Shown here piece by piece: positions 17,456-62,078 of a stretch of DNA of 64,000 nt. The stretch covers positions 2,671,668 to 2,735,667 of the forward strand of contig NZ_CP072943.1 in assembly GCF_018069705.1 (NCBI RefSeq), read 5' to 3'. Origin of the DNA: Aminithiophilus ramosus. Its GTDB lineage: Bacteria > Synergistota > Synergistia > Synergistales > Aminithiophilaceae. The stretch's first letter is position 1. Every line of letters starts with the position of its first letter. The notes under the pieces were generated by a model. It was not told where the DNA came from. It saw nothing but the letters and a program-made list of their open reading frames with translations, and did not search any database. The translations under genes and the position numbers were made by a program.

Positions 17456-17506
17456 CCCCTATCGAAGGGCACGCCGAAGGCGCCGTCGACGGCCTTTGCC
17501 GCCACA

Positions 17507-23505: not shown

Positions 23506-23575
23506 GACGCAAGCCCCCTCAAGGGCCACAATTCGAAAGGTTTCGGATACGACGCGAGAAAGCAGGTGTCCTCCT

Positions 23576-42983: not shown

Positions 42984-43197
42984 TCTATCCAGCCTCCCTC
43001 GGAACGTTTGGCGGCCATTATACCCCCTTTGCATACGGACCAGGTAGGACCTTTCTCCCCCTCCTTCCAGCGCCTCAGATAAGCGGCTAAGATAAAAACA
43101 AAGGATTGTTCCCGCCAGGCCGTCGCGGCCCGCCCTTCGGGGGGATCTCGCGGCCGCCGGGAGACCGAAGCTCGACACTCGAAAGGGAGGCGGTACT

Positions 43198-46094: not shown

Positions 46095-46104
46095 GGCGGC
46101 GGAC

Positions 46105-49100
46105 ATGAACATCGCCTCCTTCGCCATCAGAAAAAAGACGGTCACCCTCTTCCTGACGGTCCTCATGGTCGTCGGCGGCATTCTGGCCTACGGCCGCCTG
46201 GGCAAGCTCGAGGACCCCGAATTCACCATCAAGACGGCCGTCGTCGTCACCACCTATCCCGGCGCCACCCCTCGCGAGGTGGAGGAAGAGGTCACCGACG
46301 CCGTCGAGACGGCCGTCCAGCAGCTGGGCCAGGTCAAGCGGGTCCGCTCCATCTCTCAGGAGGGCATGTCGACGGTCTACGTCGACATCAAGGACACCTA
46401 CACGGCCCAGGACCTCCCCCAGATCTGGGACGAGCTGCGTCGCAAAGTCAACGACGGGCAGAGGAACCTCCCGCCCGGAGCGGGCCCCTCTCTGGTCAAC
46501 GACGACTACGGAGCCGTCTACGGCGTCTACTTCGCCCTCACCGGCGAGGGGTACTCCCTGGAGGAGCTCCGCCGGACGGCCGACTTCCTGCGCAAGGAGC
46601 TCCTCCTCGTCGACGGCGTCGCCCGCGTCGAGATCGGAGGCATCCAGAAAGAGGGCGTCTTCGTCGAGATCGCACGGGCCACCCTGGCCCAGCTCGGCAT
46701 CCCCCTGAACCAGATCGTCCAGAGCCTTCAGGCCCAGAACCTCGTCGTCTCGACGGGCAAAGTCGACGTCGGGGCCGAGCGCCTCCGCATCGATCCCACG
46801 GGGGCCTTCACCTCCGTCGAGCAGATCGGCGGCCTCCTCCTCCGGGGCTCCACGGGAAACCTCATCCGCCTCGACGACATCGCCGTCATCAGCCGCGAAC
46901 CCGTCACGCCCTCCCAGTCCCTCATGCGCTTCGACGGCAGACCCGCCATCGGCCTGGGCGTGGCCAACGTGGCCGGAGGCAACGTCATCACCATGGGAGA
47001 GGCCGTCAAGAAACGCCTGGCCGAACTGGAGGGGCAGATCCCCCTGGGCATGGACCTGGGCCTCATCTACTACCAGTCCGACACGGTCCAGGCGTCGATC
47101 GACAACTTCGTCGTCAACCTCATCGAGGCCGTCGTCATCGTCATCGCCCTCCTCCTCGTCTTCATGGGCCTCCGGACGGGCCTCCTCATCGGCGTCATCC
47201 TCCTGCTGACGATCCTGGCCACCTTCGTCGCCATGAAGACCATGGCCATCGACCTCCAGAGCATCTCTCTGGGAGCCCTCATCATCGCCCTGGGCATGCT
47301 CGTCGACAACGCCATCGTCGTCGCCGACGGCATGCTCGTCCGCATCGAGACGGGTCAGGACGGGGAACAGGCCGCGGCGGCCGTCGTGAGCCAGACCCAG
47401 CTGCCCCTCCTGGGCGCCACCTTCATCGCCATCCTGGCCTTCGCTCCCATCGGACTCTCGCCGGATTCGACGGGCGAGTTCTGCCGGAGCCTCTTCCTCG
47501 TCGTCGCCATCTCTCTCTCTTTGAGCTGGATTCTGGCCGTCACCGTCACCCCCCTTCTGGGCGTCATGACCCTCCGGTCCTCGCCGGCCATGGAGGGCAA
47601 GGATCCCTACGGCGGCAGGCTCTACGACCTCTACCGCTCCGTCCTCCTTTTCTGCCTGAGGAGACGGGCCGCCACCGTCGCCGTGACCATGGGACTTCTG
47701 GCGCTGGCCTTTTTCGGCTTCGGCCGCGTCCCTCAGACCTTCTTCCCCGACTCGTCCAGCCCCCAGTTCTCCATGGACTTCTGGTGGCCCCAGGGGACGC
47801 GCATCGAGGAGACGTCCGATCAGATCCGGCGCGTCGAGACCTTTCTCCTCGAACAGCCCGAGACGGAGTCGGTGACGACCTTCGTCGGCCAGGGAGCGCT
47901 CCGCTTCATCCTCAACTACACGCCGGGCGACCCGGGCAGCAACTACGCCCAGATCATCGTCAAGACCCGCGACGCCGCCTTCACCCGTCCCCTCATGGAG
48001 AAGGTCCGCACGGCCGCCCAAAGGGACCTGCCCGACGTGGAGCCGCGCATCAAGGCCTTCGCCAAGGGAACGTCGAGCGGAGCCAAGGTCCAGGTCCGCC
48101 TCGTCGGATCCGACAACGACGTCCTCCGCCGACTGGGCGAGGAGGCCCGGGGCCTCATGATCGCCGACGGCAGGACCGTCAACATCCGCAACGACTGGGA
48201 AAACCGCGTCAAGGTCATCCGCCCCGTCATCGACGAGGCCCGGGCCCGCCAGGCGGGCCTGAGCCGGCCCGACATCGCCGGAGCCCTCGAACTGGCCTTC
48301 GGCGGCACCCGGTCGGGACTCTACCGCGAGGGCGACCGCCTGATCCCCATCATCGCCCGCTTTCCCGCCGCCGAGCGGGACAACGTCGAGACCCTGCCCG
48401 ACACGCCCGTCTGGAGCCCCCTCGTGGGACGCTACATCGCCCTCAGCCAGGTCACGGAGCGACTGGCCACCGTCGCCGAAGATCCCGTCATCCGCCGCAG
48501 GGACCGGATGAAGACCCTCACCGTCGAGTGCGACGCCGGGGACGGCGACGCCAACGCCCTCCTCGAGCGCCTCCGCCCCCGCGTCGAGGGGCTCTCCCTT
48601 CCCCAGGGCTACCGCATGGAGTGGGGCGGCGAATACGAGAGCTCCCGAGACGCCCAGAAGGGGCTCATGGGGATGATCCCCCTGGGCTTTCTGGCCATCG
48701 TCGTCATCCTCGTCGTCCTCTTCAACGGCCTCAGGGAGACGGGGCTCATCCTCCTCTGCCTTCCCCTCTCCCTCATCGGCATGACGGCGGGACTCCTCCT
48801 CATGGGCCAGCCCTTCAGCTTCATGGCCCTCCTGGGCTTCCTCAGTCTGGCCGGCATGCTCATCAAGAACGCCATCGTCCTCCTGGACCAGTTCAATCTC
48901 GAGATCGGCCAGGGCAAGCCGCCCTTCCAGGCCATCGTCGACTCCTCCGTGAGCCGGACCCGGCCCGTCCTCATGGCGGCCCTGACGACGGTCCTGGGCA
49001 TGATTCCTCTCTACTTCGACGCCCTCTTCGCCTCCATGGCCGTGACGATCATGTTCGGCCTCTCCTTCGCCACGGTCCTGACGCTCCTCGTCGTCCCCGT

Positions 49101-49143
49101 CCTCTACGTCCTCTTCTTCCGCATCAAGGAGGAGAATGCCTGA
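46105..49143 (+). CDS. Efflux RND transporter permease (AcrB/HAE1 family)
   Basis: A 1012-aa protein with 12 TM helices and large periplasmic loops; AcrB family. Confidence 0.85.
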   Translation: MNIASFAIRKKTVTLFLTVLMVVGGILAYGRLGKLEDPEFTIKTAVVVTTYPGATPREVEEEVTDAVETAVQQLGQVKRVRSISQEGMSTVYVDIKDTYTAQDLPQIWDELRRKVNDGQRNLPPGAGPSLVNDDYGAVYGVYFALTGEGYSLEELRRTADFLRKELLLVDGVARVEIGGIQKEGVFVEIARATLAQLGIPLNQIVQSLQAQNLVVSTGKVDVGAERLRIDPTGAFTSVEQIGGLLLRGSTGNLIRLDDIAVISREPVTPSQSLMRFDGRPAIGLGVANVAGGNVITMGEAVKKRLAELEGQIPLGMDLGLIYYQSDTVQASIDNFVVNLIEAVVIVIALLLVFMGLRTGLLIGVILLLTILATFVAMKTMAIDLQSISLGALIIALGMLVDNAIVVADGMLVRIETGQDGEQAAAAVVSQTQLPLLGATFIAILAFAPIGLSPDSTGEFCRSLFLVVAISLSLSWILAVTVTPLLGVMTLRSSPAMEGKDPYGGRLYDLYRSVLLFCLRRRAATVAVTMGLLALAFFGFGRVPQTFFPDSSSPQFSMDFWWPQGTRIEETSDQIRRVETFLLEQPETESVTTFVGQGALRFILNYTPGDPGSNYAQIIVKTRDAAFTRPLMEKVRTAAQRDLPDVEPRIKAFAKGTSSGAKVQVRLVGSDNDVLRRLGEEARGLMIADGRTVNIRNDWENRVKVIRPVIDEARARQAGLSRPDIAGALELAFGGTRSGLYREGDRLIPIIARFPAAERDNVETLPDTPVWSPLVGRYIALSQVTERLATVAEDPVIRRRDRMKTLTVECDAGDGDANALLERLRPRVEGLSLPQGYRMEWGGEYESSRDAQKGLMGMIPLGFLAIVVILVVLFNGLRETGLILLCLPLSLIGMTAGLLLMGQPFSFMALLGFLSLAGMLIKNAIVLLDQFNLEIGQGKPPFQAIVDSSVSRTRPVLMAALTTVLGMIPLYFDALFASMAVTIMFGLSFATVLTLLVVPVLYVLFFRIKEENA

Positions 49144-49417: not shown

Positions 49418-49446
49418 TTGACCTTTTTCCCCCCTTGCCCTATATT
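49418..49446 (+). promoter_or_regulatory. Sigma-70 promoter of the GRE gene (TTGACC-17-TATATT)
   Basis: Near-consensus -35 and -10 boxes with a 17-nt spacer, about 130 nt upstream of the GRE start. Confidence 0.55.
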
Positions 49447-49454
49447 GTAGATAC

Positions 49455-49464
49455 ATCACATACT
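49455..49464 (+). promoter_or_regulatory. Shared 10-mer ATCACATACT, 8 nt downstream of the -10 box; candidate operator
   Basis: The identical 10-mer occurs at the identical offset from the -10 box in the GntR/activase promoter at 59144..59153. Confidence 0.45.
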
Positions 49465-49578
49465 AAACAGAACTTGGAGAGCTTTCTTTCTCTTCTTCTC
49501 GGTCCTGCGGCGCTCCAGGCGGGACCGGCTCTCCGAAGCCCCGCGGCAACGGTCTTTTTTTATCGCCAAGATTGGGGG

Positions 49579-51948
49579 ATGACGGACATGAACGAACGCG
49601 TCAGAAGGTTGAGAAGAAAGAGTTTCGAGGCCCAGCCCCGCATCTCCGTCGAGAGGGCTCTTATCGAGACGGAGTTCTACCGCGAGAATTACGGCAAATA
49701 CCCTCTCCCCGTGCTGAGAGGCCTCAATTTCAAGAACCTCTGCGAGAAGCAGACCCTCTACATCGGAGAGGACGAGCTCATCGTCGCCGAGCGGGGACCG
49801 GCTCCCAAGACGGTCTCGACCTTTCCCGAGCTGACCTGTCATTCCGCCGAAGACCTTCAGATCCTCAACTCGCGCGAGATGGCCCGCTACCTCGTCGACG
49901 AAGCCGACATCAAAGCCTACGAGGAGAAGGTCATCCCCTACTGGCGGGGCCGGAGCATGCGGGACCGGGCCTTCGCCCACATCCCCCAGGAGTGGAAGGA
50001 CCTCTACGAGGCCGGCGTCTTCACCGAGTTCATGGAGCAGCGCGCTCCGGGCCACACCACCCTGGACGGCAAGATCTACCAGAAGGGCATGCTCGACTTC
50101 AAGGCCGACATCGAGAAGTCCCGAGCCGCCCTGGACTGGCACAACGACCCCGAGGCCACGGCCAAGGACGAGGAGCTTCAGGGCATGGCCCACTCCTGCG
50201 ACGCCATCATGATCTTCGCCCGCCGCCATGCCGAGCTGGCCGAGAAGATGGCCGCCGAGGAGAGCGACCCCGTCCGCAGGGCCGAGCTGGAGCGGATCGC
50301 CGCCAACTGCCGCTGGGTTCCCGCCCATGCCCCCCGCGACTTCTGGGAGGCCATCCAGATGTACTGGTTCGTCCACCTCGGAACGATCATGGAGCTCAAC
50401 GGCTGGGACGCCATGAACCCGGGCCATTTCGACCAGCACCTGACCCCCTTCTACGAGAGGGGCATCGCCGACGGCACTCTGGACCGGGAGAAGGCCAAGG
50501 AGCTCCTCTCCTGCTTCTGGATCAAGGTCAACAACCAGACGGCCCCTCCCAAGGTGGGCGTCACGGCCAAGGAGAGCGGGACCTACAACGACTTCACCAA
50601 CATCAACCTGGCCGGGCTGAAGCGAGACGGCTCCGACGGCAGCAGCGAGGTGACCTACCTCATCCTCGAGGTGGGCGACGAGCTTCATCTCCTTCAGCCC
50701 CAGTTCAACGTCCAGGTGAGCCGCAAGACGCCCGACCGGGTCCTCAAGGCCGCGGCCAAGGTGATCCGCAAGGGTTACGGCTACCCCTCGATCTTCAACG
50801 CCGACGAGGTCGTCATGGAGCAGGTCCTCAAGGGCAAGACCGTCGAGGACGCCCGCGAGGGCGGCACAAGCGGCTGCATCGAGACGGGCTGCTTCGGCAA
50901 GGAGGCCTACATCCTCACGGGCTACCTCAACGTTCCCAAGATCTTCGAGCTGACCCTCAACGACGGCGTCGATCCTCTGACGGGCAAGCGGATCGCCCCC
51001 GCCACGGGCGACGCGACGGCCTTCAAGAGCTTCGAGGAGCTCTACGAGGCCTTCGAAAAACAGCTCAAGTACGCCGTCGACTGGAAACTGCGCGTCAACA
51101 ACTTCCTCGAGCAGATGTACGCCACCTATGCCCCGGCCACCTTCCTCTCCGTCGTCATGAGCGACTGCATCGAGAAGGGTCGGGACTACTACAACGGCGG
51201 CCCCCGGTACAACACCAACTACATCCAGTGCTGCGGCATCGGCACCGTCACCGACAGTCTCTCCGTCATCAAGAAACACATCTTCGAGGAGCAGAGCCTC
51301 ACCATGGAGAAGCTCCTCGAGGTCCTGGCCAAGGACTTCGAGGGCGAAGAGGCCCTTCGCCAGAAGTTCATGAACAAGACGCCCTTCTTCGGCAATGACG
51401 ACGACTACGCCGACTCCCTGGCCAAGCGGGTCTGGAACAGCCTGACGGGCGAGATCAACGGCAGGCCCAACACGAAGGGCTCCCGCTACTACATGGACGG
51501 CCTCTCGACGACGTGCCACGTCTACTTCGGCAAGATGCTGGGGGCCACGCCCAACGGCCGCCTCGCCCATCTGCCCGAATCGGACGGGACGTCGCCCTCG
51601 CACGGCGCCGACCGCAAGGGCCCCACGGCCGTCGTCAAGTCCCTGGGCAAGCTGGACCAGGTCAACTCGGGCGGAACCCTTCTCAATCAGCGCTTCCTGC
51701 CCCAGGTCCTGGCCGACGACACGGGCCTCGACAACCTCGTCCACCTCGTCCGGACCTACTTCAGCCTCGACGGCCATCACATCCAGTTCAACATCGTCGA
51801 CACGGCCACCCTCGAGAGGGCCCAGGCCGATCCCGACAGCTACAGGGATCTGCTGGTCCGCGTCGCCGGCTACAGCGACTACTTCGTCGACCTCGACATC
51901 TTCCACCAGAACGAGATCATCAGCCGCACCGCCCAGGAGAGCTTCTAG
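49579..51948 (+). CDS. Glycyl radical enzyme (PFL2 / glycerol-dehydratase-type, single active-site Cys); substrate unknown
   Basis: The C-terminal glycyl-radical motif RVAGYSDYF, the Cys loop GGTSGCIETG, and a roughly 790-aa size. The start could instead be the ATG at 49588. Confidence 0.85.
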   Translation: MTDMNERVRRLRRKSFEAQPRISVERALIETEFYRENYGKYPLPVLRGLNFKNLCEKQTLYIGEDELIVAERGPAPKTVSTFPELTCHSAEDLQILNSREMARYLVDEADIKAYEEKVIPYWRGRSMRDRAFAHIPQEWKDLYEAGVFTEFMEQRAPGHTTLDGKIYQKGMLDFKADIEKSRAALDWHNDPEATAKDEELQGMAHSCDAIMIFARRHAELAEKMAAEESDPVRRAELERIAANCRWVPAHAPRDFWEAIQMYWFVHLGTIMELNGWDAMNPGHFDQHLTPFYERGIADGTLDREKAKELLSCFWIKVNNQTAPPKVGVTAKESGTYNDFTNINLAGLKRDGSDGSSEVTYLILEVGDELHLLQPQFNVQVSRKTPDRVLKAAAKVIRKGYGYPSIFNADEVVMEQVLKGKTVEDAREGGTSGCIETGCFGKEAYILTGYLNVPKIFELTLNDGVDPLTGKRIAPATGDATAFKSFEELYEAFEKQLKYAVDWKLRVNNFLEQMYATYAPATFLSVVMSDCIEKGRDYYNGGPRYNTNYIQCCGIGTVTDSLSVIKKHIFEEQSLTMEKLLEVLAKDFEGEEALRQKFMNKTPFFGNDDDYADSLAKRVWNSLTGEINGRPNTKGSRYYMDGLSTTCHVYFGKMLGATPNGRLAHLPESDGTSPSHGADRKGPTAVVKSLGKLDQVNSGGTLLNQRFLPQVLADDTGLDNLVHLVRTYFSLDGHHIQFNIVDTATLERAQADPDSYRDLLVRVAGYSDYFVDLDIFHQNEIISRTAQESF

Positions 51949-51954
51949 CTCCCG

Positions 51955-52020
51955 CGGTCGCGACGAAGACAAGGGGGGGGGAGGGCCCGCACTCCGGGCC
52001 CTCCCCCCCTTGTCGCGGCT
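51955..52020. terminator. Bidirectional terminator hairpin between the GRE (+) and dctP (-) genes
   Basis: CGCGACGAAGACAAGGGGGGGGGAGGGCCCG-cact-CCGGGCCCTCCCCCCCTTGTCGCG (the stem has one bulge). Confidence 0.5.
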
Positions 52021-52026
52021 GTGACC

Positions 52027-52100
52027 TTACTTGCCGGGAGCCATGTTGACGCGGAACTCGTCCATGAGCTCCTTGGTCATGTTCTTCTCGAGGGCCTGCC
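52027..52100. repeat. Near-identical about 70-bp 3'-end segment shared by the two dctP paralogs (second copy at 57664..57740)
   Basis: TTACTTGCCGGGAGCCATGTTGACGCGGAACTCGTCCAT.AG.TCCTTGGTCATGTTCTTCTCGAG is present at both loci, indicating a dispersed gene duplication. Confidence 0.7.
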
Positions 52101-53040
52101 AGGTGGTGGCGCAGGCCTCGGCGAGAGGCGTCAGCTCCTCCTGGGTGTAGGTGTGGACCTCGATGCCGTAGTCGCGCATCATCTGCATGTACTTGGCGTC
52201 GACCTCTTCGGCCATCTCGATGCTCTTGGCGGCGCCGCGGCTGACGGCGTCCTGGAGGATCTTCTGGTCCTCGGGCTTCATGGAGGCCCAGGTCTTGCCG
52301 CTGATCATGATGTTGAGGCACTCCAGGGAGTAGTTGGTCATGTACCAGTGCTTGAGCACGTCGCGGAGGGCCGTATAGGCGGCGGCGACGGGGTAGCCGT
52401 TGACGCCCTCGCAGACGCCGGTCTGCATGGCCTGGTAGACGTCGGCGTAGGGGATCGTCACGGTCCGGTAGCCCATGGCCTCGGCGGCCAGCTTGTAGAC
52501 ATCCATGTTGGGGACGCGGACGAGGACCTCCTTGGCGACGGCGGGATTGAGGGGATCGACGGCGGGCTTCGTCGTTCCCGTGCCGATCATCCCCTCGATG
52601 AAGAAGCCGAGGAGGTTGACGCCGAGACGGCTGATCAGCTCGTCCATCTTGCCGAAGAGCCAGCCGTCGGGGGCGAAGACGCGCTTGGCGTCATCGTAGC
52701 CGCGGACGAAGCCGTTGACGTAGACCAGCTCGAGACGGGGGTCGAACTGGCTGGGAACGGAGATGCACCCCATCTCGATCGTTCCCCTGATGAGCTCCTC
52801 GAAGACCAGCGTGTAGTCGCCGAGCTGGTTGGCCGGATAGACCTTGAGTTCGATGCGGCCGTTCGACTTCTCGGCCACCTCGGCGGCGATCTGGTTCATG
52901 ACGGCCGTGGCGGGATGGTCGGCCGGATTCTGACCGGCGAACTTGAAGCTGTATTCGGGAGCGGCGAAAGCGGAACTGACCATGAAGACGACGAGAGCGA
53001 GAAGAAGCGGCACCACCTGAAAGGCTTTCCTCAACACCAT
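52027..53040 (-). CDS. dctP: TRAP transporter substrate-binding protein (DctP family), paralog 1
   Basis: Signal peptide and DctP fold. An AAGGAGG SD. About 80% identical to the gene at 57664..58683. Confidence 0.8.
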   Translation of the reverse strand: MVLRKAFQVVPLLLALVVFMVSSAFAAPEYSFKFAGQNPADHPATAVMNQIAAEVAEKSNGRIELKVYPANQLGDYTLVFEELIRGTIEMGCISVPSQFDPRLELVYVNGFVRGYDDAKRVFAPDGWLFGKMDELISRLGVNLLGFFIEGMIGTGTTKPAVDPLNPAVAKEVLVRVPNMDVYKLAAEAMGYRTVTIPYADVYQAMQTGVCEGVNGYPVAAAYTALRDVLKHWYMTNYSLECLNIMISGKTWASMKPEDQKILQDAVSRGAAKSIEMAEEVDAKYMQMMRDYGIEVHTYTQEELTPLAEACATTWQALEKNMTKELMDEFRVNMAPGK

Positions 53041-53536
53041 TCCCCTCCTTGTCAAAACCCCAAGAACCCCCTGGGCCTCCCTGACGGAACGCCCCACCCC
53101 ATACTCCTTTTTCTTCATTGTGTCCATGACAGGCCTGTCTATTGTATGGTACCACAACAAGTATATTCTGGACAGAGTCTTTTTTGGATTAAAAATTAAG
53201 GAACATGACGTTCCCGATGGGGTGGAGAATTATGAAAGGCTTCTCTTTCGTCGAGAGGGGACAACCGCTTGGGGCCTCCGACGGGAGGCCCCAAGGAGGG
53301 GACTGGCAGGGAACTGCGAAGGCGAGTCCACAGGCAAAAGGGATGCCCCGACCCGACAGGGAAACGGCAGAAGGGCCGGGACGTCGCCTTGGACCGGCAC
53401 CGACGGGACGATTGAGGCGGACCTCAAAGCGGGGTGCGACGGAACGTGCCCTGACCCGTCCGCGGGGCCGGGCCGCAAGCGGCGGGAGGCGTTCAGGTAC
53501 CGGGAGGCATCGAGCCCGACGGACCGTCGAGGTCCT

Positions 53537-54223
53537 TCAGGAGCCTTCCACGGAGGGAGCCTCTCCTCGGATGAAGCGGATATCGCCGTAGAGGGTGTAG
53601 CGGCTCTTGCCCGTCTCCTTGACGAGACGGGGAATGGCCTCCTTGAGGCGGAAGAATCCCTTTCCGTCGAGCCAGCGGACCAGATCGATCCGCTCCTCGC
53701 GGGAGAGGAAGCGCAGCGGCTTCCCGCGAAGGCGACGGGCCTCGGCCAGCAGATCGCCGAGCCGGTCGCCGCGAAGACCGACGAAACGCTCGATCTCGCC
53801 TCCCGCGGAGACAGGGGGCGTCAGCGTCGTGAGGAACTCGGCCATATCGCGGATGACGACGGCCCGCGTCGTATCGTAGTTGAGACAGAGGAGGCCGACG
53901 AGACAGCCCCTCTCGTCGCGGACGAGAGCCACCGAGGAGCGCAGGGTCCGGCCGTCGTCGGCCTCGGAGGCGTAGTTGGCCAGATAGTCCAGCTCGCCGC
54001 GTCGTTCCCGTTCCATGAGCTTAAGACCGAAATCGGTGATGGGCGTCTCCATGTCGCGGCCCGTCACGTCGCCGTGCTCCATGGCCACGGTGACGGGTTC
54101 TTCCCCCGAGACGTCGTGGAGGACGATCTCATAATCCCTCCCCAGAGTGGCCCCCAACATCTTGACGACGGGCAGGAGGGGGAGGAGAAGGGGGTGGCAG
54201 GGCCGGCCCGACAGCTCGGTCAT
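53537..54223 (-). CDS. YheO-like transcriptional regulator (PAS-like N-terminal domain plus C-terminal HTH)
   Basis: The architecture and length match YheO-family regulators, which are commonly adjacent to amino-acid-metabolism genes. Confidence 0.6.
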   Translation of the reverse strand: MTELSGRPCHPLLLPLLPVVKMLGATLGRDYEIVLHDVSGEEPVTVAMEHGDVTGRDMETPITDFGLKLMERERRGELDYLANYASEADDGRTLRSSVALVRDERGCLVGLLCLNYDTTRAVVIRDMAEFLTTLTPPVSAGGEIERFVGLRGDRLGDLLAEARRLRGKPLRFLSREERIDLVRWLDGKGFFRLKEAIPRLVKETGKSRYTLYGDIRFIRGEAPSVEGS

Positions 54224-54227
54224 CCCC

Positions 54228-55217
54228 TCAGAGGGAGATCCGGCTGCCGACGCCTGCGGCCTCGGCCTTGGCGACGATCTCGTAGGCCGTGACGACGTCG
54301 AGCGTCGCGAAGCCCACCGTCTTCATGACGGTGATCTCCTCGTCGTTCCGGCGCCCGTCGATCTCGCCGAGAAGGAGCTGGCCCAGTTCGCCGGCGATGA
54401 TCTCCTCGCCGAAGCGCCCCTCCCTGATGGGCGTCATGAGATCGCCCGCCTCGGCCAGGACGGCCTCGCGGTTGTCGACGTAGACCCGGCCGGCCCGCTC
54501 CAGAACTTCGGGAGGAAGCTCCTCCATGGCCGGGGTGTAGGCGCCGATGCCGTTGATGTGAGCGCCGGGTTTCACCCGCCCGCCGTCGAAGACGGGCCTG
54601 GCCGACGTCGTCACGGCCGTGATGACGTCGGCTCCGTCGACGGCCTCGTCGGAGGACCGGGCGGCGACGAGGCGGGTTCCGAAACGCCCGGCCAGAGAGG
54701 CATTGGCCTCGACGAAGGCCCGCACCCGCTCCGAAGCGACGTCGAAGACCCGGACCTCCTTCAGATTCCGGACCGTCAGAATCGCCTCGAGCTGCGCCGG
54801 AGCCTGACCGCCGGTGCCGAAAAGGGCCCCGACGGAGCTCTCGGGACGGGAGAGAAGCTCCGTCGCCGCCCCCGCGATGGCCGCCGTCCGCATCTGCGTC
54901 AGCGTCGTCCCCTCGATGAGGGCGGCGACCTCCCCCGTCTCGCCGTCGAGGAGGATCACCGTGGCGGGAACGACGGGAATCCCCCTGGCCCCGTTGCCGG
55001 GGAAGACGGAGACGATCTTGATCCCCGCCCTCTCGATCCCTCCGGCGTAGGCGGGCATGAAAAGGTACTGCCCCCTCCCCTCGGCGGCGTCGAAGTTGAT
55101 TCTCAGAGGAACGCGGCACTTCCCCTGAGAATGGAGAATGAAGGCTCTCTTGTCGGCCTCGATGGCGTCCCTCATGGAAAAGACGGACAGGATCTCGCTG
55201 CGGGACAGAATCAGCAT
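54228..55217 (-). CDS. Ornithine cyclodeaminase / mu-crystallin family enzyme (OCD, ketimine or Pyr2C reductase, or lysine cyclodeaminase-like)
   Basis: OCD-family Rossmann motif (GALFGTGGQA) and a length of 329 aa. An AGGAGG SD precedes the ATG at 55217. Confidence 0.75.
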   Translation of the reverse strand: MLILSRSEILSVFSMRDAIEADKRAFILHSQGKCRVPLRINFDAAEGRGQYLFMPAYAGGIERAGIKIVSVFPGNGARGIPVVPATVILLDGETGEVAALIEGTTLTQMRTAAIAGAATELLSRPESSVGALFGTGGQAPAQLEAILTVRNLKEVRVFDVASERVRAFVEANASLAGRFGTRLVAARSSDEAVDGADVITAVTTSARPVFDGGRVKPGAHINGIGAYTPAMEELPPEVLERAGRVYVDNREAVLAEAGDLMTPIREGRFGEEIIAGELGQLLLGEIDGRRNDEEITVMKTVGFATLDVVTAYEIVAKAEAAGVGSRISL

Positions 55218-55392
55218 GGATCTTCCTCCTTTCGTGACTCCACGGCGGCCCGAAGAACCGCCACAGCCATTTTCGGGTAAATACACACTTTTGTCAATAA
55301 TCAACAATAGGTGATTTTCCCCGAAAAAGAGAGGGCCGCCGAAGAAGAAGCGACCCTCGAAGAACCCCGGCATCTCCCGTCCGAGGACGAAG

Positions 55393-55632
55393 TCAGTCCG
55401 CGCCGCGGCGGAAGAGGAACGAAAGGAGAGGACGGAGGCGCCGCCGCAGCGTCTCGGCGTAGAGCGGATCGGGCCACTGCTTCTTCATGGCCGTCCGGGA
55501 AAAGGCGCCGCAGACCATGCAGCCCCAGAAGGCCCTGGCGGAACCGAAGCGGAGGCCGGCCAGCAGGAAGATAAAGCAGAGGCCGGCGAAGAGGTTCCGG
55601 TAGAAGGTGGGGCGGCGCCGCTCCTCGCTCAC
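55393..55632 (-). CDS. Hypothetical 79-aa membrane protein, possibly translationally coupled to dctM
   Basis: A GTG start 4 nt after the dctM stop. GC3 is very high (about 90%) in this frame, and there is one predicted TM helix (FAGLCFIFLLAGL). No SD. Confidence 0.35.
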   Translation of the reverse strand: MSEERRRPTFYRNLFAGLCFIFLLAGLRFGSARAFWGCMVCGAFSRTAMKKQWPDPLYAETLRRRLRPLLSFLFRRGAD

Positions 55633-55636
55633 GCCG

Positions 55637-56953
55637 CTACCAGGGCGTCCCCAGGATGACGTGGGGCAGGAAGAGGACGACCTTGGGGATGTAGGCCGTG
55701 ACGAGAAGGACCGGGAGCCAGCAGAGCAGCATGAACCAGAGGGCCGGCTTCATGATCTCGTTGATGGGGGCGTTGTTCAGCCGCCCTCCCAGATAGAGGA
55801 CGGGCGCCGCCGGAGGCGTGATGCAGCCCAGCCCCGTGTTGACGCCGACGATGGCGGCGTAGTGGATGGGGTTGAAGCCCAGCTCGAGGATGATGGGCAT
55901 CAGGATCGGCGTCGTCAGGACGACGACGCTGATGTCGTCCATGAGCATGCCCATGATGACGAGGAAGACGTTGATCATGAAGAGGATGACCCAACGGTTC
56001 TCCGAGACCGATTTGAGAAGGACGAACATCCGTCCCGGAAGGTCCTCCAGGAGGTAGAGACGGCTCAGCATGGCGACGGAGAAGAGCATGGCCATGATGA
56101 CGCCCGTCGTGACGGCCGATTCGGCGACGACCTCCAGAAGGTCTTTGACCTTGAGCCCCTTGTAGACGAACATCCCGACGGGAATGGAGTAGAGGACGGC
56201 AACGGCCGAGGCCTCCGTCGTCGTCATGACGCCGCCGTAGATGCCGCCGAGGACGATGACGGGCAGCATCAAGGCCGGGATGGCCAGACGCCCCCGCTCC
56301 TTGAAGAGGCGCCACTTCTCCTCGCGGGTCCGGTTGTGGGCCACCAGGACCTGTTCGTTGTTGCGCAGGAGCCACATGTTGACGACGCAGATGAGGATCG
56401 TCGTCACGATGCCGGGGCCGACGGTGGAGAGGAAGCAGGCCAGGACGGGCTGGCCGCTGATCCAGGCGAAGATGATCAGCGTGGCGTTGGGCGGGATGAG
56501 GAGGCCCAGAAGGGAGGCGTTGGACATGAGGGCCGCCGAGTGCCCCCGGGGATAGCCCCCCTCGCGGAGACGGGGGAACATGATGGAGCCGATGCAGGAG
56601 AGGGTGGCGCAGGCCGCGCCCGAGATGGAGCCGAAGACGGCGCAGGAGATGGTTCCCACGACGCCGAGGCCGCCGCGGAGATGGCCGACGAAGACGTCGA
56701 CGAAGTCGATGAGCTTCTCGCCGATGCGGCCCCTCTCCATGATGCCTCCGGCCATGATGAAGAGGGCGATGGCGATGAGGGAGACGGAGTTCATCTGCGT
56801 GAAGGCGTAGGGAAGGAGCTGACTGGCCGTATAGCCCGCCCCGTCGGGACCGCCGAAGAAGATGAGCCAGCCCGCCGAGGCCATGAAGCTCACGGGGACG
56901 GGAACGCCGACGACGAGACAGAAGAGAAGGATGAGGATGGCGATGTAAATCAT
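55637..56953 (-). CDS. dctM: TRAP transporter large permease (DctM)
   Basis: A 438-aa polytopic membrane protein of the DctM family. Its start overlaps the dctQ stop (ATGA). Confidence 0.85.
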   Translation of the reverse strand: MIYIAILILLFCLVVGVPVPVSFMASAGWLIFFGGPDGAGYTASQLLPYAFTQMNSVSLIAIALFIMAGGIMERGRIGEKLIDFVDVFVGHLRGGLGVVGTISCAVFGSISGAACATLSCIGSIMFPRLREGGYPRGHSAALMSNASLLGLLIPPNATLIIFAWISGQPVLACFLSTVGPGIVTTILICVVNMWLLRNNEQVLVAHNRTREEKWRLFKERGRLAIPALMLPVIVLGGIYGGVMTTTEASAVAVLYSIPVGMFVYKGLKVKDLLEVVAESAVTTGVIMAMLFSVAMLSRLYLLEDLPGRMFVLLKSVSENRWVILFMINVFLVIMGMLMDDISVVVLTTPILMPIILELGFNPIHYAAIVGVNTGLGCITPPAAPVLYLGGRLNNAPINEIMKPALWFMLLCWLPVLLVTAYIPKVVLFLPHVILGTPW

Positions 56954-57477
56954 GGTTTCCCTCCGAGGAAAAGGACCTTCGCGCTGACGAAAAGCTCGAC
57001 GGCGAAGTAGTAGAGCATGAAGATGAAGCCCAGGAAGATGCCCAGGTAGGACGTCCAGAGGGGGATGCGCCAGATCGTCGTCATGGGGATGGCGACGCGC
57101 GTCCCCAGGGGGCCCATGAAGCCGAACATGAAGAAGTCGTAGCCGTACCAGACGTAGAGGGCCGTGACGGAGACGGTGATGAGGCACTTGAGGAAGACGA
57201 GGAACCGCTTAAGGAACCCCTCGGGCACGTAGGCGTTGACCAGGTCGGCCGAGACGTGCGTCCCGTTGTAGGCGCCTATGGCGGCGCCGGAGAAATAAAG
57301 CCAGAAGGCGATGAGCTTGACCCACTCCTCGTAACCGTAGAGGTCTCCGTGAAGAACGTAACGGACGAAGGTCGCCGCGCTGATCAGGACGGTCAGAGCG
57401 AAGGCGGAGACCACTGCGATGGAAGAGAAGGAACCGATGACGACCTTGTCGAAAAGATTCTTCTTCGGTCCTCCCAT
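56950..57477 (-). CDS. dctQ: TRAP transporter small permease (DctQ)
   Basis: Four TM helices and DctQ size. The start is placed at MGGPKKNLFDKV; alternative upstream starts exist at 57537 and 57555. Confidence 0.7.
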   Translation of the reverse strand: MGGPKKNLFDKVVIGSFSSIAVVSAFALTVLISAATFVRYVLHGDLYGYEEWVKLIAFWLYFSGAAIGAYNGTHVSADLVNAYVPEGFLKRFLVFLKCLITVSVTALYVWYGYDFFMFGFMGPLGTRVAIPMTTIWRIPLWTSYLGIFLGFIFMLYYFAVELFVSAKVLFLGGKP

Positions 57478-57663
57478 TCCACTGCCTGATTCACAAATCG
57501 TATTCTCGGACACGAAATTTCCCCCTCCCCGTGGCATTATCAAATCTGTGTTCATTGTACAACGTGATATCCCCGTTGGCGATAGGCCATAGAGAGAAAA
57601 AGAGCGACGAAAAGCGTCCCGGAAGGCTTGCGGTCTTCCGGGACGCCGGAACGCCTTTTACGT

Positions 57664-58683
57664 CTACTTGCCGGGAGCCATGTTGACGCGGAACTCGTCC
57701 ATCAGTTCCTTGGTCATGTTCTTCTCGAGCTGGCCCCAGGTGGTGGCGCAGGCCTCGGCCAGGGGGAGAAGCTCCTCCTCGGAGTAGGTGTGGACTTCGA
57801 TGCCGTAGTCGCGCATCATCTGCATGAACTTCTCGTCTTCGGCCTTGGCCTGGACGATGCTCTTGGCGGCGGCGTGGCTGACGGCGGTCTGGACGATCTG
57901 GCGATCTCCCTCGCTGAGCTTCTCCCAGATCTTGCCGCTGAACATGTAGTTGATGACTTCAAGGGAGTAGTTGGTCATGTACCAGTGCTTGAGCACGTCG
58001 CGGAGCATGGTGTAGGCGGCGGCGGTGGAGTAGCCGTTGACGCCCTCGCAGACGCCGGTCTGCATGGCCTGGTAGACGTCGGAGTAGGGGATCGTCACGG
58101 TCCGGTAGCCCATGGCCTCGGCGCCGAGCTTGTAGACGTCCATGTTGGCGACGCGGACGAGGACGCCCTTGTTGACGGAGGGGTCAAGAGGCTCGGCGGC
58201 GGGCTTGGTCGTGCCCGTTCCGATCATGCCCTCGACGAAGAAGCCCAGGAGCTTGACGCCGAGGCGGTTGTTGAGCTCGTCCATCTTGCCGAAGAGCCAG
58301 GCGTCGGGGGCGAAGACCTTCTTGACATCCTCGTAGCCCTTGACGTAACCATTGACGTAGAGCAGCTCCAGGCGAGGATCGAACTGGGAGGGAACGGAGG
58401 TGCAGGACATGTCGATGGTGCCGCGGATGAGCTCCTCGTAGACGAGAGTGTAGTCGCCGAGCTGATTCATGGGGTAGACCTTGATCTCGATGCGGCCGTC
58501 GGACTTCTCGGCCACTTCGGCGGCGATCTCCTCCATGAGAAGCGTGGCGGGGTGATCGGCGGGATTCTGACCGGCGAACTTGAGGGTGATCTCGGCCGCA
58601 AAGGCCGAGCCGGCCACGAGGACGAGGGAAAGAGCGAGCAATCCGGCGACGAAGGACGACTTCCTGAACAGAGCCAACGACAT
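57664..58683 (-). CDS. dctP: TRAP transporter substrate-binding protein (DctP family), paralog 2
   Basis: Signal peptide and DctP fold. An AAGGAG SD. About 80% identical to the gene at 52027..53040. Confidence 0.8.
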   Translation of the reverse strand: MSLALFRKSSFVAGLLALSLVLVAGSAFAAEITLKFAGQNPADHPATLLMEEIAAEVAEKSDGRIEIKVYPMNQLGDYTLVYEELIRGTIDMSCTSVPSQFDPRLELLYVNGYVKGYEDVKKVFAPDAWLFGKMDELNNRLGVKLLGFFVEGMIGTGTTKPAAEPLDPSVNKGVLVRVANMDVYKLGAEAMGYRTVTIPYSDVYQAMQTGVCEGVNGYSTAAAYTMLRDVLKHWYMTNYSLEVINYMFSGKIWEKLSEGDRQIVQTAVSHAAAKSIVQAKAEDEKFMQMMRDYGIEVHTYSEEELLPLAEACATTWGQLEKNMTKELMDEFRVNMAPGK

Positions 58684-59106
58684 CCACTCCTTACGAAATT
58701 TTACGAAATTGTGTGCTCGTTACAACCACCACTCCCGGCCCGCCGTCACCGGCGAACCATAACTGCCTTTCGACGCCCTAACACCCTCCCTTCTCACCGT
58801 TATCGCGATGGCTGAGGGCGACTGCCTCCCCCCCCCGGAAGGGAGCCGAGCGGGGTCGTTACTGAAGCGTGATATTTCATCCATCTTCATATGCATCCTA
58901 GATAATTCAGTCCTTTCTGTCAACCCTTTACGTTCGGCAAAGAGAGACAGGGTGGGAAAAAAAACTACGAACCACGAAACGTCCCTTGAAGGGCCCCCCA
59001 TCTCTTGAAAGGGGGAGCATAGGCCTCCTCATCGCGGCGTCTTTTCGCTTCCGTGCCTCATCTTTTTCTCTTGTTTTTATTCTTTTCAATTTAAAGACGG
59101 CTTCCC

Positions 59107-59135
59107 TTGACACCTCTCGGCTCTAAGTCTATAGT
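59107..59135 (+). promoter_or_regulatory. Sigma-70 promoter of the GntR / GRE-activase operon (TTGACA-17-TATAGT)
   Basis: Consensus -35 box, 17-nt spacer, and a good -10 box. Confidence 0.55.
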
Positions 59136-59143
59136 TTTGATGT

Positions 59144-59153
59144 ATCACATACT
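59144..59153 (+). promoter_or_regulatory. Second copy of the ATCACATACT 10-mer, 8 nt downstream of the -10 box; candidate operator
   Basis: Identical sequence and spacing to the copy at 49455..49464. Confidence 0.45.
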
Positions 59154-59191
59154 CTCGGCTGTTCCAGTGTTGCGAAAAAGGAGACTTCCTG

Positions 59192-59902
59192 ATGTATCAA
59201 GAAAGCCTGTCCCTGTCCACCGTCAAGTCTCTGAGGCAGCAGGTCTACGACTTCCTCCGCGAGGAGATGAACTCCGGTCGCATCCTGCCCGGCTCCTTCC
59301 TGAACCTGAATGAGATGAGCCATCACCTCGGCATCAGCAAGACGCCCCTCCGCGACGCCCTCCTTCACCTCGAAGTCGAGGGCTTCGTGACCATCTTTCC
59401 CCGGAGGGGGATCATGGTCAATCTCCTGTCCCTGGAGAAGATCCGCAACATCTACGAGATCATCGGCGCCCTCGAGGCCCAGGTCGTCGCCGCCCTTTCC
59501 GGCCGCTTCGGCGAGGCCGACGTCGACGACATGGACGCCCTCAACGAGGGCATGCGCCGGGCCCTGGACGAGGACGACTTCAATCTCTACTACGAGAAGA
59601 ACCTGGCCTTCCACGACACCTACCTGAACAAAACGGAGAACGAGGACCTTCTCAAGACCGTCCAAACCCTGAAGGAGCGCCTCTACGACTTCCCCCGCAA
59701 GAAGGGCTTCGTCAAGGAGTGGGAGGTCCGCTCGACGGGCGAACATGCCGACATCATCGCCCGCCTCCGTCGGGGCGATTTCGCCTCCGCCTCGGACTAT
59801 ATCCGCGACGTCCACTGGTCCTTCCAGGTCCAGGAGCGCTACATCCGCCGCTACTACTTCCTCCAGAACGGCGAGGGGGAAAGAGGAGAGGACCTCCGAT
59901 GA
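59192..59902 (+). CDS. GntR-family (FCD-type) transcriptional regulator
   Basis: wHTH (LNLNEMSHHLGISKTPLRDAL) plus an FCD domain. Its stop overlaps the activase start. Confidence 0.75.
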   Translation: MYQESLSLSTVKSLRQQVYDFLREEMNSGRILPGSFLNLNEMSHHLGISKTPLRDALLHLEVEGFVTIFPRRGIMVNLLSLEKIRNIYEIIGALEAQVVAALSGRFGEADVDDMDALNEGMRRALDEDDFNLYYEKNLAFHDTYLNKTENEDLLKTVQTLKERLYDFPRKKGFVKEWEVRSTGEHADIIARLRRGDFASASDYIRDVHWSFQVQERYIRRYYFLQNGEGERGEDLR

Positions 59903-60804
59903 CGAAGGGACTCGTCTTCGACTTCAAGCGCTACTCCATCCACGACGGTCCGGGACTGAGGACGACGGTCTTCCTCAAGGGGTGCCCCCTCTCCTGCTGG
60001 TGGTGCCACAACCCCGAGAGCCAGTCCTCTCTGGCCGAGATCATGGTCCGCCCCGAGCGCTGCATCGGCTGCGGCGAATGCGTCAAGGCCTGCCCGAAGG
60101 GAGCCCTCGCCTTCGGGGCCTACGGCATCCTGACCGACATGGCCCTCTGCAACCGCTGCGGAACCTGCACCGACGTCTGCCCCACCGAGGCGCGGCGCCT
60201 CGTGGGGCGGGAGATGTCCGTCGCCGAGGTCATGGACGAGGTCGAACGGGACCGTCTCTTCTACGACCGTTCCGGCGGCGGCATGACCGTCTCGGGAGGC
60301 GAGCCCCTCATGCAGCCCCGGTTCCTCCTCGATCTGCTGCGCGAGGCCGGCCGCGTCGAGATCCACCGCGCCGTGGACACGACGGGCTTCGCCCAGACCT
60401 CGCTTCTCCTCGACGTCGCCGCGGAGACGGACCTCTTCCTCTACGATCTCAAGCACATGGACCCCGAAAAGCACCGCCTCTACACGGGCGTCTCCAACGA
60501 GCTGATCCTCCACAACCTGAGGACTCTGGCCGAGTCGGGAGCGGCCCTCAACGTCCGCATGCCCGTCATTCCCGGCGTCAACGACGACGCGGCCAACATC
60601 GAGGCCTCGGGGGCCTTTCTGGCCGCCCTCCCCGGCGCCCCTTCCGTCAACGTCCTCCCCTACCACAAGTCGGGGCTGGAGAAGTTCCGCCGCCTGGGCC
60701 TGGAGTACCGCCTGGCCGAGACGGAAGAGCCCTCGCCGGAGGCGATGGCCTCCGTCCGCGACAGGCTGCTGAGCTTCGGCCTCTCCGTCAGGGTCGGCGG
60801 CTAG
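59899..60804 (+). CDS. Glycyl-radical enzyme activating protein (radical SAM, PFL-AE family with a ferredoxin-like insert)
   Basis: The CPLSCWWCHNPE radical-SAM CX3CX2C motif, two additional Cys clusters (CIGCGECVKACP, CNRCGTCTDVCP), and GGEPL. Confidence 0.85.
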   Translation: MTKGLVFDFKRYSIHDGPGLRTTVFLKGCPLSCWWCHNPESQSSLAEIMVRPERCIGCGECVKACPKGALAFGAYGILTDMALCNRCGTCTDVCPTEARRLVGREMSVAEVMDEVERDRLFYDRSGGGMTVSGGEPLMQPRFLLDLLREAGRVEIHRAVDTTGFAQTSLLLDVAAETDLFLYDLKHMDPEKHRLYTGVSNELILHNLRTLAESGAALNVRMPVIPGVNDDAANIEASGAFLAALPGAPSVNVLPYHKSGLEKFRRLGLEYRLAETEEPSPEAMASVRDRLLSFGLSVRVGG

Positions 60805-60900: not shown

Positions 60901-62061
60901 TCAGTTTCCGGTCGGGGGGTCGTAGCAGACGGCGTCGCCCTCCTTGAGGGAGGAGGCGCCGGTGACGACGACGAGCTCGCCCTCGGAGAGGCCCTCGCGG
61001 ATCTCGACGAGCCCCGAGGCCTCGATGCCCGTCTCGACGGGCCGGACGGCGATTCGGCCGTCGTCGACGACGAAGACGGAGCCGGAACGGAGGGCCTCGA
61101 CGGGGAGGACCAGGGCATCGTCGACCTCCTCCTCGACGAGAAAGACGGTGGAGAACATGCCCGGCTTGAGGCGGCCTCCGCCGTTGTCGACGGCCACCTC
61201 GACCTGGACGGTCCGCGTCGACGTGTCGACGTAGGGGCGGATGCGGAGGATCTCTCCCGCGACGCCGGAGAAGGAGTCTCCCGCAAGAAGGGCCTTCATC
61301 CCCTCTTTCAGACGGCCGCCGCGGGTCTCCGGGACCTGGAGGACGGCCTTCAGGACGGCGATCTTCCCGATCTTGACGACGGCCGTCGACGTGGAGATCA
61401 TCGTTCCCTCCGTCAGGGAATAGTCGTCGAGGACCGTCCCGTCGATGGAGGCCGTCAGGATGTACTCCGACCGCTGGACCTCCTGCGTCTTCAGGTTGGC
61501 CCTCTGCTGCCCCACCGAGGCCTGGGTCTTTCGGTAGGCGGCCTGGGCCGACTGGTAGGTCGTCTCGCGGGAGTCCAGCTCCTGCTGCGTGGCGAATCCC
61601 TCGGCCAGGAGCTTGCGGTAGCGATCCCTCTCCCTGAGGGCATCGTCGAGGGTGACTTTGGCCTGGGCCGATTCGGCCTCGGCGACGGCGATCTGGGCCT
61701 TGAGGGCGGCGACCTGGGCGTCCTGATCGCGGTGGTCGAGGACGGCGACGACGTCGCCTCGGGCGACCCGATCTCCCTGACGGGCCCGAAGCTCGACGAG
61801 GCGTCCCGTCACCTTGGAAAGAAGGGTCACCTCTTCGAGGGCCTCCAGCGTGCTGGCGGACTGGAAGCCCTGGGAGAGCCTCTCGGCACGGCGGGCGACG
61901 GTGACGGTCACCTTGGCGGCGGCCGCCTCCGTCGCCGGAGGGCTCTCTTCCGCCACGGCCCGACGATTGCCGCGAACGATCATGAAGCCCCCCGACGCGA
62001 GGCCGAGACAGAGCAGAGCGGCGAGGAGCCTGAGTCCCCACCCTTTGGCCTTTCCGGACAT
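60901..62061 (-). CDS. Efflux RND periplasmic adaptor subunit (MFP)
   Basis: Lipoprotein-like signal, coiled coil, and beta-barrel domains. Start taken at MSGKAKGW (62061), immediately after the TolC-like stop. Confidence 0.75.
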   Translation of the reverse strand: MSGKAKGWGLRLLAALLCLGLASGGFMIVRGNRRAVAEESPPATEAAAAKVTVTVARRAERLSQGFQSASTLEALEEVTLLSKVTGRLVELRARQGDRVARGDVVAVLDHRDQDAQVAALKAQIAVAEAESAQAKVTLDDALRERDRYRKLLAEGFATQQELDSRETTYQSAQAAYRKTQASVGQQRANLKTQEVQRSEYILTASIDGTVLDDYSLTEGTMISTSTAVVKIGKIAVLKAVLQVPETRGGRLKEGMKALLAGDSFSGVAGEILRIRPYVDTSTRTVQVEVAVDNGGGRLKPGMFSTVFLVEEEVDDALVLPVEALRSGSVFVVDDGRIAVRPVETGIEASGLVEIREGLSEGELVVVTGASSLKEGDAVCYDPPTGN

Positions 62062-62078
62062 CCGGTCTTCCCCCTTCA

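Follow-up and report, generated by a model that had tools for sequence, protein, structure and literature searches.

The 64,000-nucleotide stretch of the Aminithiophilus ramosus genome analyzed here (the window; NCBI RefSeq assembly GCF_018069705.1, contig NZ_CP072943.1, positions 2,671,668 to 2,735,667 of the forward strand) contains a gene for a glycyl radical enzyme (GRE), a gene for a radical-SAM activase and, between them on the opposite strand, an island of genes for a TRAP transporter, a protein of the ornithine cyclodeaminase (OCD)/mu-crystallin family and a YheO-type regulator. By its sequence, the GRE is a member of the trans-4-hydroxy-L-proline dehydratase family (HypD), and activity on trans-4-hydroxy-L-proline is expected from this membership. 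The locus as a whole is probably a hydroxyproline-utilization locus organized around this known enzyme. The analysis establishes the HypD family identity, the gene layout, a pair of operator-like sites and the statistics of the gene neighborhoods.

Reading frames in the window, whose G+C content is 65%, were picked by third-position G+C together with domain hits. The GRE scores 1188.1 bits with the NCBIfam HypD equivalog model NF043068 (cut-off 1100; the next model reaches 620) and stays far under the cut-offs of all other NCBIfam GRE models. In a PDB search, C. difficile HypD (6vxc) is matched with 970 bits, against 494 bits for the next GRE, glycerol dehydratase, 408 bits for IslA and 395-412 bits for the other hydroxyproline GREs HplG (7vua), HpyG (8id1) and HpzG (8iof), which are named as in PMC13450708. 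HplG, HpyG, HpzG, IslA, CutC and GDH were rejected as identities for the GRE, with scores reported as less than half of that for HypD. Aligned with 6vxc, the GRE shows 52% identity over 781 residues with no gap, and each of the 12 functional residues of HypD is present, namely Gly765 and Arg156, His160, Asp278, Lys326, Ser334, Asp339, Phe340, Cys434, Glu436, Tyr450 and Thr645, which are hydroxyproline-binding or proton-relay residues of the C. difficile enzyme (PMC7077986, from which the residue roles were taken). The two motifs listed for the GRE in an earlier note on this DNA are both present. The Cys and Glu of the loop GCIETG align with Cys434 and Glu436, so the CXE motif is kept, and the Gly of the glycyl radical motif RVAGYSDYF aligns with Gly765 (Pfam Gly_radical, E = 1.4e-34).

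The earlier note had held that the GRE matches no characterized specificity and that it marks an uncharacterized radical catabolic pathway. Comparison with the known GRE families places it in a tight cluster with the characterized HypD family, and both claims are therefore wrong. A GRE of new specificity, forming a new radical pathway with the TRAP and OCD genes, would fit the unusual distance of the activase and the enzymes of uncertain substrate that lie between the two genes, but it is scarcely tenable for a protein that passes a curated HypD equivalog, keeps every functional residue and scores about twice as high with HypD as with any other GRE, HplG, HpyG and HpzG included. The presence of HypD in Synergistetes, which has been published (PMC6219649), also speaks against it. 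The more general idea of the same note, that the locus handles a cyclic imino acid such as a hydroxyproline isomer, was right apart from the uncharacterized specificity it gave to the GRE.

With HypD and the HypD activating enzyme of C. difficile (6vxc, 6vxe), the window proteins share the fold, the domain order, the glycyl radical motif, the CXE loop and the HypD-specific substrate and proton-relay residues, and the activases are of one class, each with a pair of auxiliary ferredoxin-like motifs. The systems differ in the Cys loop, which reads CVE in C. difficile and CIE here, in the activase gene, which here is not adjacent to hypD and stands 8 kb off behind a GntR gene, and in the surroundings of hypD, which has no neighboring proC and is accompanied instead by the TRAP transporter and the OCD-family reductase. 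The open reading frame (ORF) of the GRE spans 49435-51948 (+), with its likely start at 49588. A start at the upstream ATG at 49579 was rejected because the deposited gene starts at 49588, which has the better spacing to a GGGGGA ribosome-binding site, and an exact-sequence look-up with the 49579 start gave no match. Protein by protein, the window is 97-100% identical to NCBI contig JAIVOV010000141.1 (assembly GCA_053528775.1). Within the species-representative collection, a Synergistaceae metagenome-assembled genome (MAG; locus L002) comes closest, with a HypD of 92% identity.

Related loci, designated by L numbers, include a HypD-seeded sample of 80 loci fetched by similarity to the window HypD and a DctP1-seeded sample of 27 metagenome TRAP loci. 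The activase carries the radical-SAM motif CPLSCWWC (CX3CX2C) and the ferredoxin-like motifs CIGCGECVKACP and CNRCGTCTDVCP, and it scores 358 bits with the general GRE-activase model TIGR02494 (cut-off 174). An activase gene lies at most about 200 bp from hypD in 71 of the 80 HypD loci, usually upstream in Synergistota and Desulfobacterota, where it often follows a GntR gene, and downstream in Bacteroidota; the separation of hypD and activase seen here is thus unusual. The window activase is 44-59% identical to the HypD-adjacent activases of 71 related loci. These adjacent orthologs, together with an operator-like site shared by the two transcription units, suggest that the distal activase pairs with HypD. 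The gene inventory of the earlier note, a GRE with a distal activase and an opposite-strand series dctP-dctQ-dctM-79-aa ORF-OCD-YheO-dctP', was recovered with each gene in its place, and the distance of about 8 kb also holds, the activase starting 7.95 kb past the GRE stop codon. The inventory did not contain the GntR/FCD gene at 59192-59902, and its start coordinate for the locus, 49418, is the start of the hypD promoter-like site.

The product of this additional gene has a GntR domain (E = 1.5e-13) and an FCD domain (E = 1e-17), the domain content of the GntR/FadR subfamily, and in other loci its orthologs (44-83% identity) precede activase-hypD. The -10 boxes of hypD and gntR are each followed directly by an operator-like site, GATACATCACATACT and GATGTATCACATACT respectively, and the window has no further exact match to the 15-nt pattern GATRYATCACATACT. 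The pattern was spotted by eye and then confirmed by a pattern search, while an automatic 12-mer comparison of five promoter regions missed it; none of 100 shuffles gave three or more matches at up to three mismatches. L002 has kept the site before hypD, as L087 and L088 have before gntR; variant forms of the gntR site occur in L090, L095 and L096, and in the last two the operator-like site precedes both dctP and gntR. A slightly degenerate form gave 23 hits in 1.9 Mb of related loci, and 17 of them lay just upstream of hypD, activase, gntR or dctP. Since hypD and gntR-activase carry the same 15-nt site, co-regulation of the split genes is proposed; the two units probably form one regulon, and the GntR/FCD protein is the candidate binder of this putative operator.

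Two close relatives, L087 and L088, also have gntR-activase and dctP in divergent arrangement. That the island was simply inserted between activase and hypD was considered and rejected, as the order here is hypD-island-gntR-activase, compared with the usual gntR-activase-hypD, and more than one rearrangement would be needed. In Aminobacteriaceae/Aminivibrio loci (L059, 5089-9042; L070; L078), a DAO-family flavoprotein, a small ORF and an aldehyde:ferredoxin oxidoreductase are encoded directly upstream of activase-hypD. This oxidoreductase could convert glutamate semialdehyde, the open form of delta-1-pyrroline-5-carboxylate (P5C), to glutamate.

The TRAP transporter of the island is recognized by Pfam DctP (twice), DctQ and DctM domains and by TIGR00786 (323 bits, cut-off 268), with DctPQM encoded together and the two solute-binding proteins DctP1 and DctP2 being 79% identical. 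DctM relatives of 72-74% identity flank hypD in L034, L038, L049, L059, L060 and L070, four of which show apparent activase-hypD-dctPQM operons. HypD and/or activase genes are present in five of the 27 TRAP-seeded loci (L087, L095, L096, L099 and L111), and a HypD-type GntR gene in L088, L090 and L092. Other TRAP relatives lie beside genes for proline dehydrogenase and aldehyde dehydrogenase (L100, L111 and L112) or for AcnX (L111). On the basis of these neighborhoods in several phyla, the transporter most likely imports hydroxyproline- and/or proline-type imino acids; no description of a TRAP hydroxyproline transporter was found in the literature searched. In L111 (394-12987), hypD-activase, a P5C-dehydrogenase-like aldehyde dehydrogenase, proline dehydrogenase, GntR, AcnX (cis-3-hydroxyproline dehydratase family) and TRAP genes occur in one cluster, which looks like a complete proline/hydroxyproline catabolic island.

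The small gene orf79 follows dctM directly in more than 20 related loci and is therefore considered a real, family-specific fourth gene. Its product, whose conserved core is about 55 residues long and includes two hydrophobic helices and the motif FYRNxFAxLCF...GALSRTAxKKxWPDP, may be a fourth component of the transporter. Solved TRAP binding proteins match the window DctP with 66-74 bits at best and have varied ligands, and at this distance they give no clue to the ligand. One such distant match is the isethionate-binding DctP 8t9t (66 bits) of the IseKLM/IslA-type loci. We take these loci of sulfate reducers to have the same architecture as the window, with a GRE, an activase, a GntR-family regulator and TRAP uptake; they differ in the GRE, which here is HypD.

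The OCD-family protein (Pfam OCD_Mu_crystall, E = 6.7e-67) has as its best solved relative the delta-1-pyrroline-2-carboxylate (Pyr2C) reductase TlLhpI of Thermococcus litoralis (6t3e; 226 bits, about 37% identity). A Synergistota protein, Tlie_1581 of Thermovirga, had already been grouped near TlLhpI by Watanabe et al. (PMC4141209). In the numbering of P. putida OCD, the window protein has a Tyr at the catalytic Asp228 and a Leu at Glu56, the position of TlLhpI Leu52, and it has a Met where OCD and alanine dehydrogenase carry a Lys. It is most likely an imine reductase, probably NAD(P)H-dependent and of the Pyr2C type, with its substrate suggested by homology. A true ornithine/lysine cyclodeaminase, making proline from an imported diamino acid, would account for the annotation of homologs as 'ornithine cyclodeaminase' in the sources and would make transporter, enzyme and regulator a self-sufficient module. 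The catalytic residues of OCD are, however, absent, including the ligand of the ornithine delta-amino group (Glu56), and the protein is therefore not a cyclodeaminase; the NCBIfam OCD models give only 99-127 bits against cut-offs of 337-350, and we give this explanation almost no weight.

The protein could also stand in for ProC and reduce P5C to L-proline, as in the hypD-proC pair of Clostridia, an option that we regard as improbable. The characterized OCD-family reductases known to us act on 2-imines next to the carboxylate (Pyr2C, delta-1-piperideine-2-carboxylate and iminosuccinate), whereas P5C is a 5-aldimine. An OCD-family reductase of P5C is not known to us and did not come up in the literature searched. 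The same type of OCD protein also pairs with a serine-dehydratase-like (SDH-like) enzyme in loci without HypD (L118 and L119), which points to a 2-imine formed by beta-elimination. Replacement of ProC would nevertheless suit the colocalization of proC with hypD in many Clostridia (PMC6219649), the lack of a ProC-like cluster among the neighbors of the 80 HypD loci, in which unclustered ORFs were not scanned, and the occurrence of OCD-family genes beside HypD in three lineages.

A probable cyclic imine reductase beside a YheO-type regulator (PAS_6, E = 1.5e-30; HTH_22, E = 2.5e-13) has a counterpart in dauBAR of Pseudomonas aeruginosa, in which the OCD-family NAD(P)H-dependent imine/keto-acid reductase DauB is encoded next to a PAS_6 and HTH_22 regulator, DauR, which we take to be of the YheO type. 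The window differs in having no D-amino-acid dehydrogenase partner and in its OCD subfamily; L-arginine dehydrogenase is one such subfamily (PMC4141209). L084, L085 and L086 likewise pair this regulator with the OCD gene. Desulfofustis glycolicus (L049 and L097; 40% identity) and the Desulfobacteraceae MAG L001 (25%) have divergent OCD-family genes one to two genes away from hypD or TRAP genes, and this proximity argues for a functional link over chance.

Clustering of the genes neighboring the 80 HypD loci also revealed a recurrent SDH-like protein of about 515 aa with fused beta and alpha domains, a member of which is encoded in the window outside the coordinates of the earlier note. Its Cys motifs align with those of the Legionella L-serine dehydratase 4rqo, and the fold and the Fe-S Cys motifs are kept. 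The window protein is under all NCBIfam L-serine ammonia-lyase cut-offs (alpha, 198.5 against 243.2 bits; beta, 107.6 against 161.2; single-chain, 122.9 against 345.1), and so are four of its orthologs. Besides the window, the gene was noted in L005, L025, L028, L035, L036, L042, L055, L092, L095, L097, L117, L118 and L119. It follows hypD immediately in seven Desulfobacterales loci, lies between TRAP and gntR-activase-hypD in L095 and L096, and is found beside a GntR gene and a TRAP-OCD operon in L097 and L049 and beside TRAP and GntR genes without HypD in L092 and L117. In the window it lies 5 kb upstream of hypD, and L002 has the same arrangement. In L118 (Acidobacteriota) and L119 (Armatimonadota) the next gene after the SDH-like one encodes an OCD-family protein with the Leu and the 'GAY' signature common to the OCD proteins of the window and of Desulfofustis. 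At least four phyla, namely Synergistota, Desulfobacterota, Acidobacteriota and Armatimonadota, appear to have the SDH-like/OCD pair. A MocR-type regulator with an aminotransferase domain is encoded divergently from the window SDH-like ORF, with slight overlap (41796-43292, -), and a similar MocR gene is near the SDH-like gene in L121.

The HypD, TRAP and GntR surroundings make 3-hydroxyproline the most attractive candidate substrate of the SDH-like enzyme. A second hydroxyproline branch is possible on this basis and is put forward tentatively: the SDH-like [4Fe-4S] enzyme would convert 3-hydroxyproline to Pyr2C, the GAY-type OCD protein would reduce Pyr2C to proline, and entry would be through the imino-acid TRAP transporter with orf79. 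Dehydration of a beta-hydroxy amino acid followed by reduction of the 2-imine by an OCD-family enzyme is the logic of BhcB and BhcD in the beta-hydroxyaspartate pathway (6rqa), which the proposed pair would share. The differences from that system are that the window OCD protein scores 125 bits with the BhcD model (cut-off 500), that the window dehydratase is of the Fe-S type and not dependent on pyridoxal phosphate, and that the genomic context points to imino acids. LhpH and LhpI, a dehydratase of trans-3-hydroxy-L-proline and a Pyr2C reductase, follow the same logic and offer a second comparison. TlLhpI is the closest solved relative, with Leu52 kept and the catalytic Asp of OCD absent in both proteins; the annotated parts of the window hold no dehydratase of the proline-racemase type for trans-3-hydroxy-L-proline, the candidate supplier of the imine being the SDH-like Fe-S enzyme, and the signature is GWV in TlLhpI and GAY in the window protein. 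No serine-dehydratase-type 3-hydroxyproline dehydratase was found in the literature searched.

Several observations weigh against parts of this picture of the locus. The best NCBIfam model of the activase, the HypD activase NF043069, gives 378.6 bits and stays under its cut-off of 425. A search of the window allowing up to three mismatches gave no operator copy ahead of dctP1, ocd, dctP2 or the SDH-like gene, so co-regulation of the island with hypD is not supported here. The NCBIfam Pyr2C-reductase models all remain under their cut-offs with the OCD protein (234 against 322 bits, 144 against 266 and 126 against 400), and TlLhpI is itself multifunctional, with alanine dehydrogenase activity as well (PMC4141209). 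OCD orthologs in other Synergistota (66-70% identity) occur as TauE-permease/OCD/YheO without TRAP or HypD nearby, and those in Paenibacillus and Clostridium (55-56%) as TrmB/TauE/OCD; given such other partners, OCD-YheO is seen as a portable unit that was placed behind TRAP in this lineage. Most TRAP relatives with long flanks (L089, L098, L101, L109 and L110) lack HypD nearby, and proline dehydrogenase/aldehyde dehydrogenase and AcnX genes are absent from them as well, so the link between this transporter and proline-ring compounds is recurrent, not universal. In the window an RND efflux operon comes between the SDH-like gene and hypD, SDH-like proteins occur in unrelated contexts (L116, L120 and L121), and the window protein may be a plain L-serine dehydratase. 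Beyond the HypD family, finally, the substrate assignments rest on homology and neighborhood.

The co-conservation of the island with the GRE, which the earlier note had made a test of its proposal, holds in part: TRAP genes stand beside HypD in seven of the 80 HypD loci, and the TRAP-seeded sample returns HypD or activase genes as given above, but the whole island recurs only in L002 and OCD-YheO is mostly found elsewhere. In L002 itself (12548-17538), extra genes stand between dctP2 and yheO, coding for a DsbD_2/HMA/cupredoxin protein, for what may be a third DctP and for an IlvD/EDD-family dehydratase, and the island content is therefore fluid. An unrelated insertion next to hypD by chance, with a TRAP transporter for some other organic acid and OCD-YheO acting on an unrelated imine or keto acid, would agree with this variability, with the pairing of OCD-YheO with TauE permeases away from HypD, with the many TRAP relatives that have no HypD nearby, with the missing operator and with the promoter of its own that OCD-YheO has behind a terminator. 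The OCD substrate could then be pyruvate, giving alanine, or a sulfur-containing cyclic ketimine, as the usual TauE partner might suggest. We consider such a chance association unlikely in view of the apparent operons of TRAP with activase-hypD in Aminobacteriaceae and Synergistaceae (L038, L059, L060 and L070), the association of TRAP with proline dehydrogenase/P5C dehydrogenase and AcnX elsewhere, the three divergent OCD-family lineages at most one to two genes from HypD or its TRAP, and the gntR-type operator on TRAP in L095 and L096.

Under the hydroxyproline reading, which remains the preferred one, hydroxyproline from collagen or peptide breakdown would be taken up, probably by the TRAP transporter (dctP1-dctQ-dctM with orf79 and dctP2). 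The distal radical-SAM enzyme would activate HypD, which would convert trans-4-hydroxy-L-proline to P5C by the Gly-radical to Cys-thiyl mechanism established for the family, and the GntR/FCD protein would control hypD and gntR-activase through their shared operator. The LhpI-like reductase, controlled by YheO, would form L-proline by reducing a pyrroline carboxylate, for which Pyr2C derived from 3-hydroxyproline is the most plausible candidate and P5C a less plausible one, with the SDH-like Fe-S enzyme speculatively supplying the Pyr2C imine. We infer all substrates except that of HypD, as well as the pairing of regulator with operator and the role of the SDH-like enzyme.

Features of the hydroxyproline-utilization candidate locus, in window coordinates
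Feature	Coordinates	Strand	Remarks
SDH-like Fe-S enzyme, fused beta-alpha, 512 aa	43198..44736	+	Pfam SDH_alpha; outside the coordinates of the earlier note
hypD promoter-like site TTGACC-17-TATATT	49418..49446	+	
Operator-like site GATACATCACATACT	49450..49464	+	directly after hypD -10 box
hypD, glycyl radical enzyme, 786 aa	49588..51948	+	PFL-like and Gly_radical domains
hypD thiyl Cys codon	50875-50877	+	
hypD radical Gly codon	51868-51870	+	
G+C-rich hairpin, 15-bp stem, between convergent hypD and dctP2	51975..52009	.	strand not assigned; likely a bidirectional terminator
dctP2, second TRAP solute-binding protein	52027..53127	-	alone after yheO
YheO-type regulator	53537..54223	-	PAS_6 and HTH_22
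OCD/mu-crystallin family protein, 329 aa, LhpI-like	54228..55217	-	
ocd-yheO promoter-like site TTGACA-17-GAAAAT	55269..55297	-	
Terminator-like hairpin after orf79	55331..55358	-	between TRAP operon and ocd-yheO
orf79, 79-aa small two-helix membrane protein	55393..55632	-	
dctM, TRAP large permease	55637..56953	-	
dctQ, TRAP small permease	56950..57477	-	
dctP1, TRAP solute-binding protein	57664..58683	-	
dctP1QM-orf79 promoter-like site TTGACA-17-TAGGAT	58895..58923	-	
gntR-activase promoter-like site TTGACA-17-TATAGT	59107..59135	+	11/12 matches
Operator-like site GATGTATCACATACT	59139..59153	+	directly after gntR -10 box
GntR/FCD-family regulator	59192..59902	+	4-bp overlap with activase start
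HypD-activating radical-SAM enzyme, 301 aa	59899..60804	+	CX3CX2C and two ferredoxin-like Cys motifs

Nine promoter-like sites were found, compared with 1.4 in shuffles, and an Rfam scan of 40000-64000 detected no RNA families. Two RND efflux systems flank the locus: HlyD-AcrB (44820-49143, +) lies upstream of hypD and is the one that stands between the SDH-like gene and hypD, and MFP-OEP-AcrB (60903-64000, -) is convergent with the activase. Farther away, the window encodes aconitase, isocitrate/isopropylmalate dehydrogenase, citrate-lyase beta-like and alpha (CitF) proteins and an FAA-hydrolase-family protein (678-7759, +), followed by a DUF4276 protein and an AAA_21/AAA_15 ATPase encoded next to each other (7886-9695, -), where the G+C content of 0.61 is below that of the surroundings. 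At 22656-25057, the gene for a second GntR/FCD regulator diverges from that for a DAO-family flavoprotein, which carries a BFD-like [2Fe-2S] domain; in Thermanaerovibrio (L116), a similar DAO/Pyr_redox/DUF1667 set and the SDH-like gene are about 5 kb apart.

The chemistry and structure of HypD and its presence in Synergistetes are already published; what is modestly new is the context, namely an activase gene split from hypD, the operator common to both units, a TRAP family with a small fourth gene, and the pairing of SDH-like and OCD genes. These features provide candidates for three HypD-linked steps that are poorly defined outside Clostridia, namely uptake, regulation and the fate of 3-hydroxyproline. 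For uptake in anaerobes, the candidate is the TRAP family with its conserved fourth small protein; for regulation of hypD, it is the GntR/FCD protein with a defined 15-nt putative operator; and for the fate of 3-hydroxyproline, a minor collagen imino acid, it is the SDH-like Fe-S dehydratase with the LhpI-like reductase. If the last assignment is true, this dehydratase-reductase pair would be an Fe-S counterpart of the LhpH/LhpI and AcnX routes. Desulfofustis glycolicus DSM 9705 is a cultured organism whose locus L049 contains the activase, hypD, OCD-family, TRAP, GntR/FCD and SDH-like families, with divergent copies of OCD, GntR and SDH-like genes (40% identity for OCD and 35% for SDH-like), which makes these ideas directly testable.

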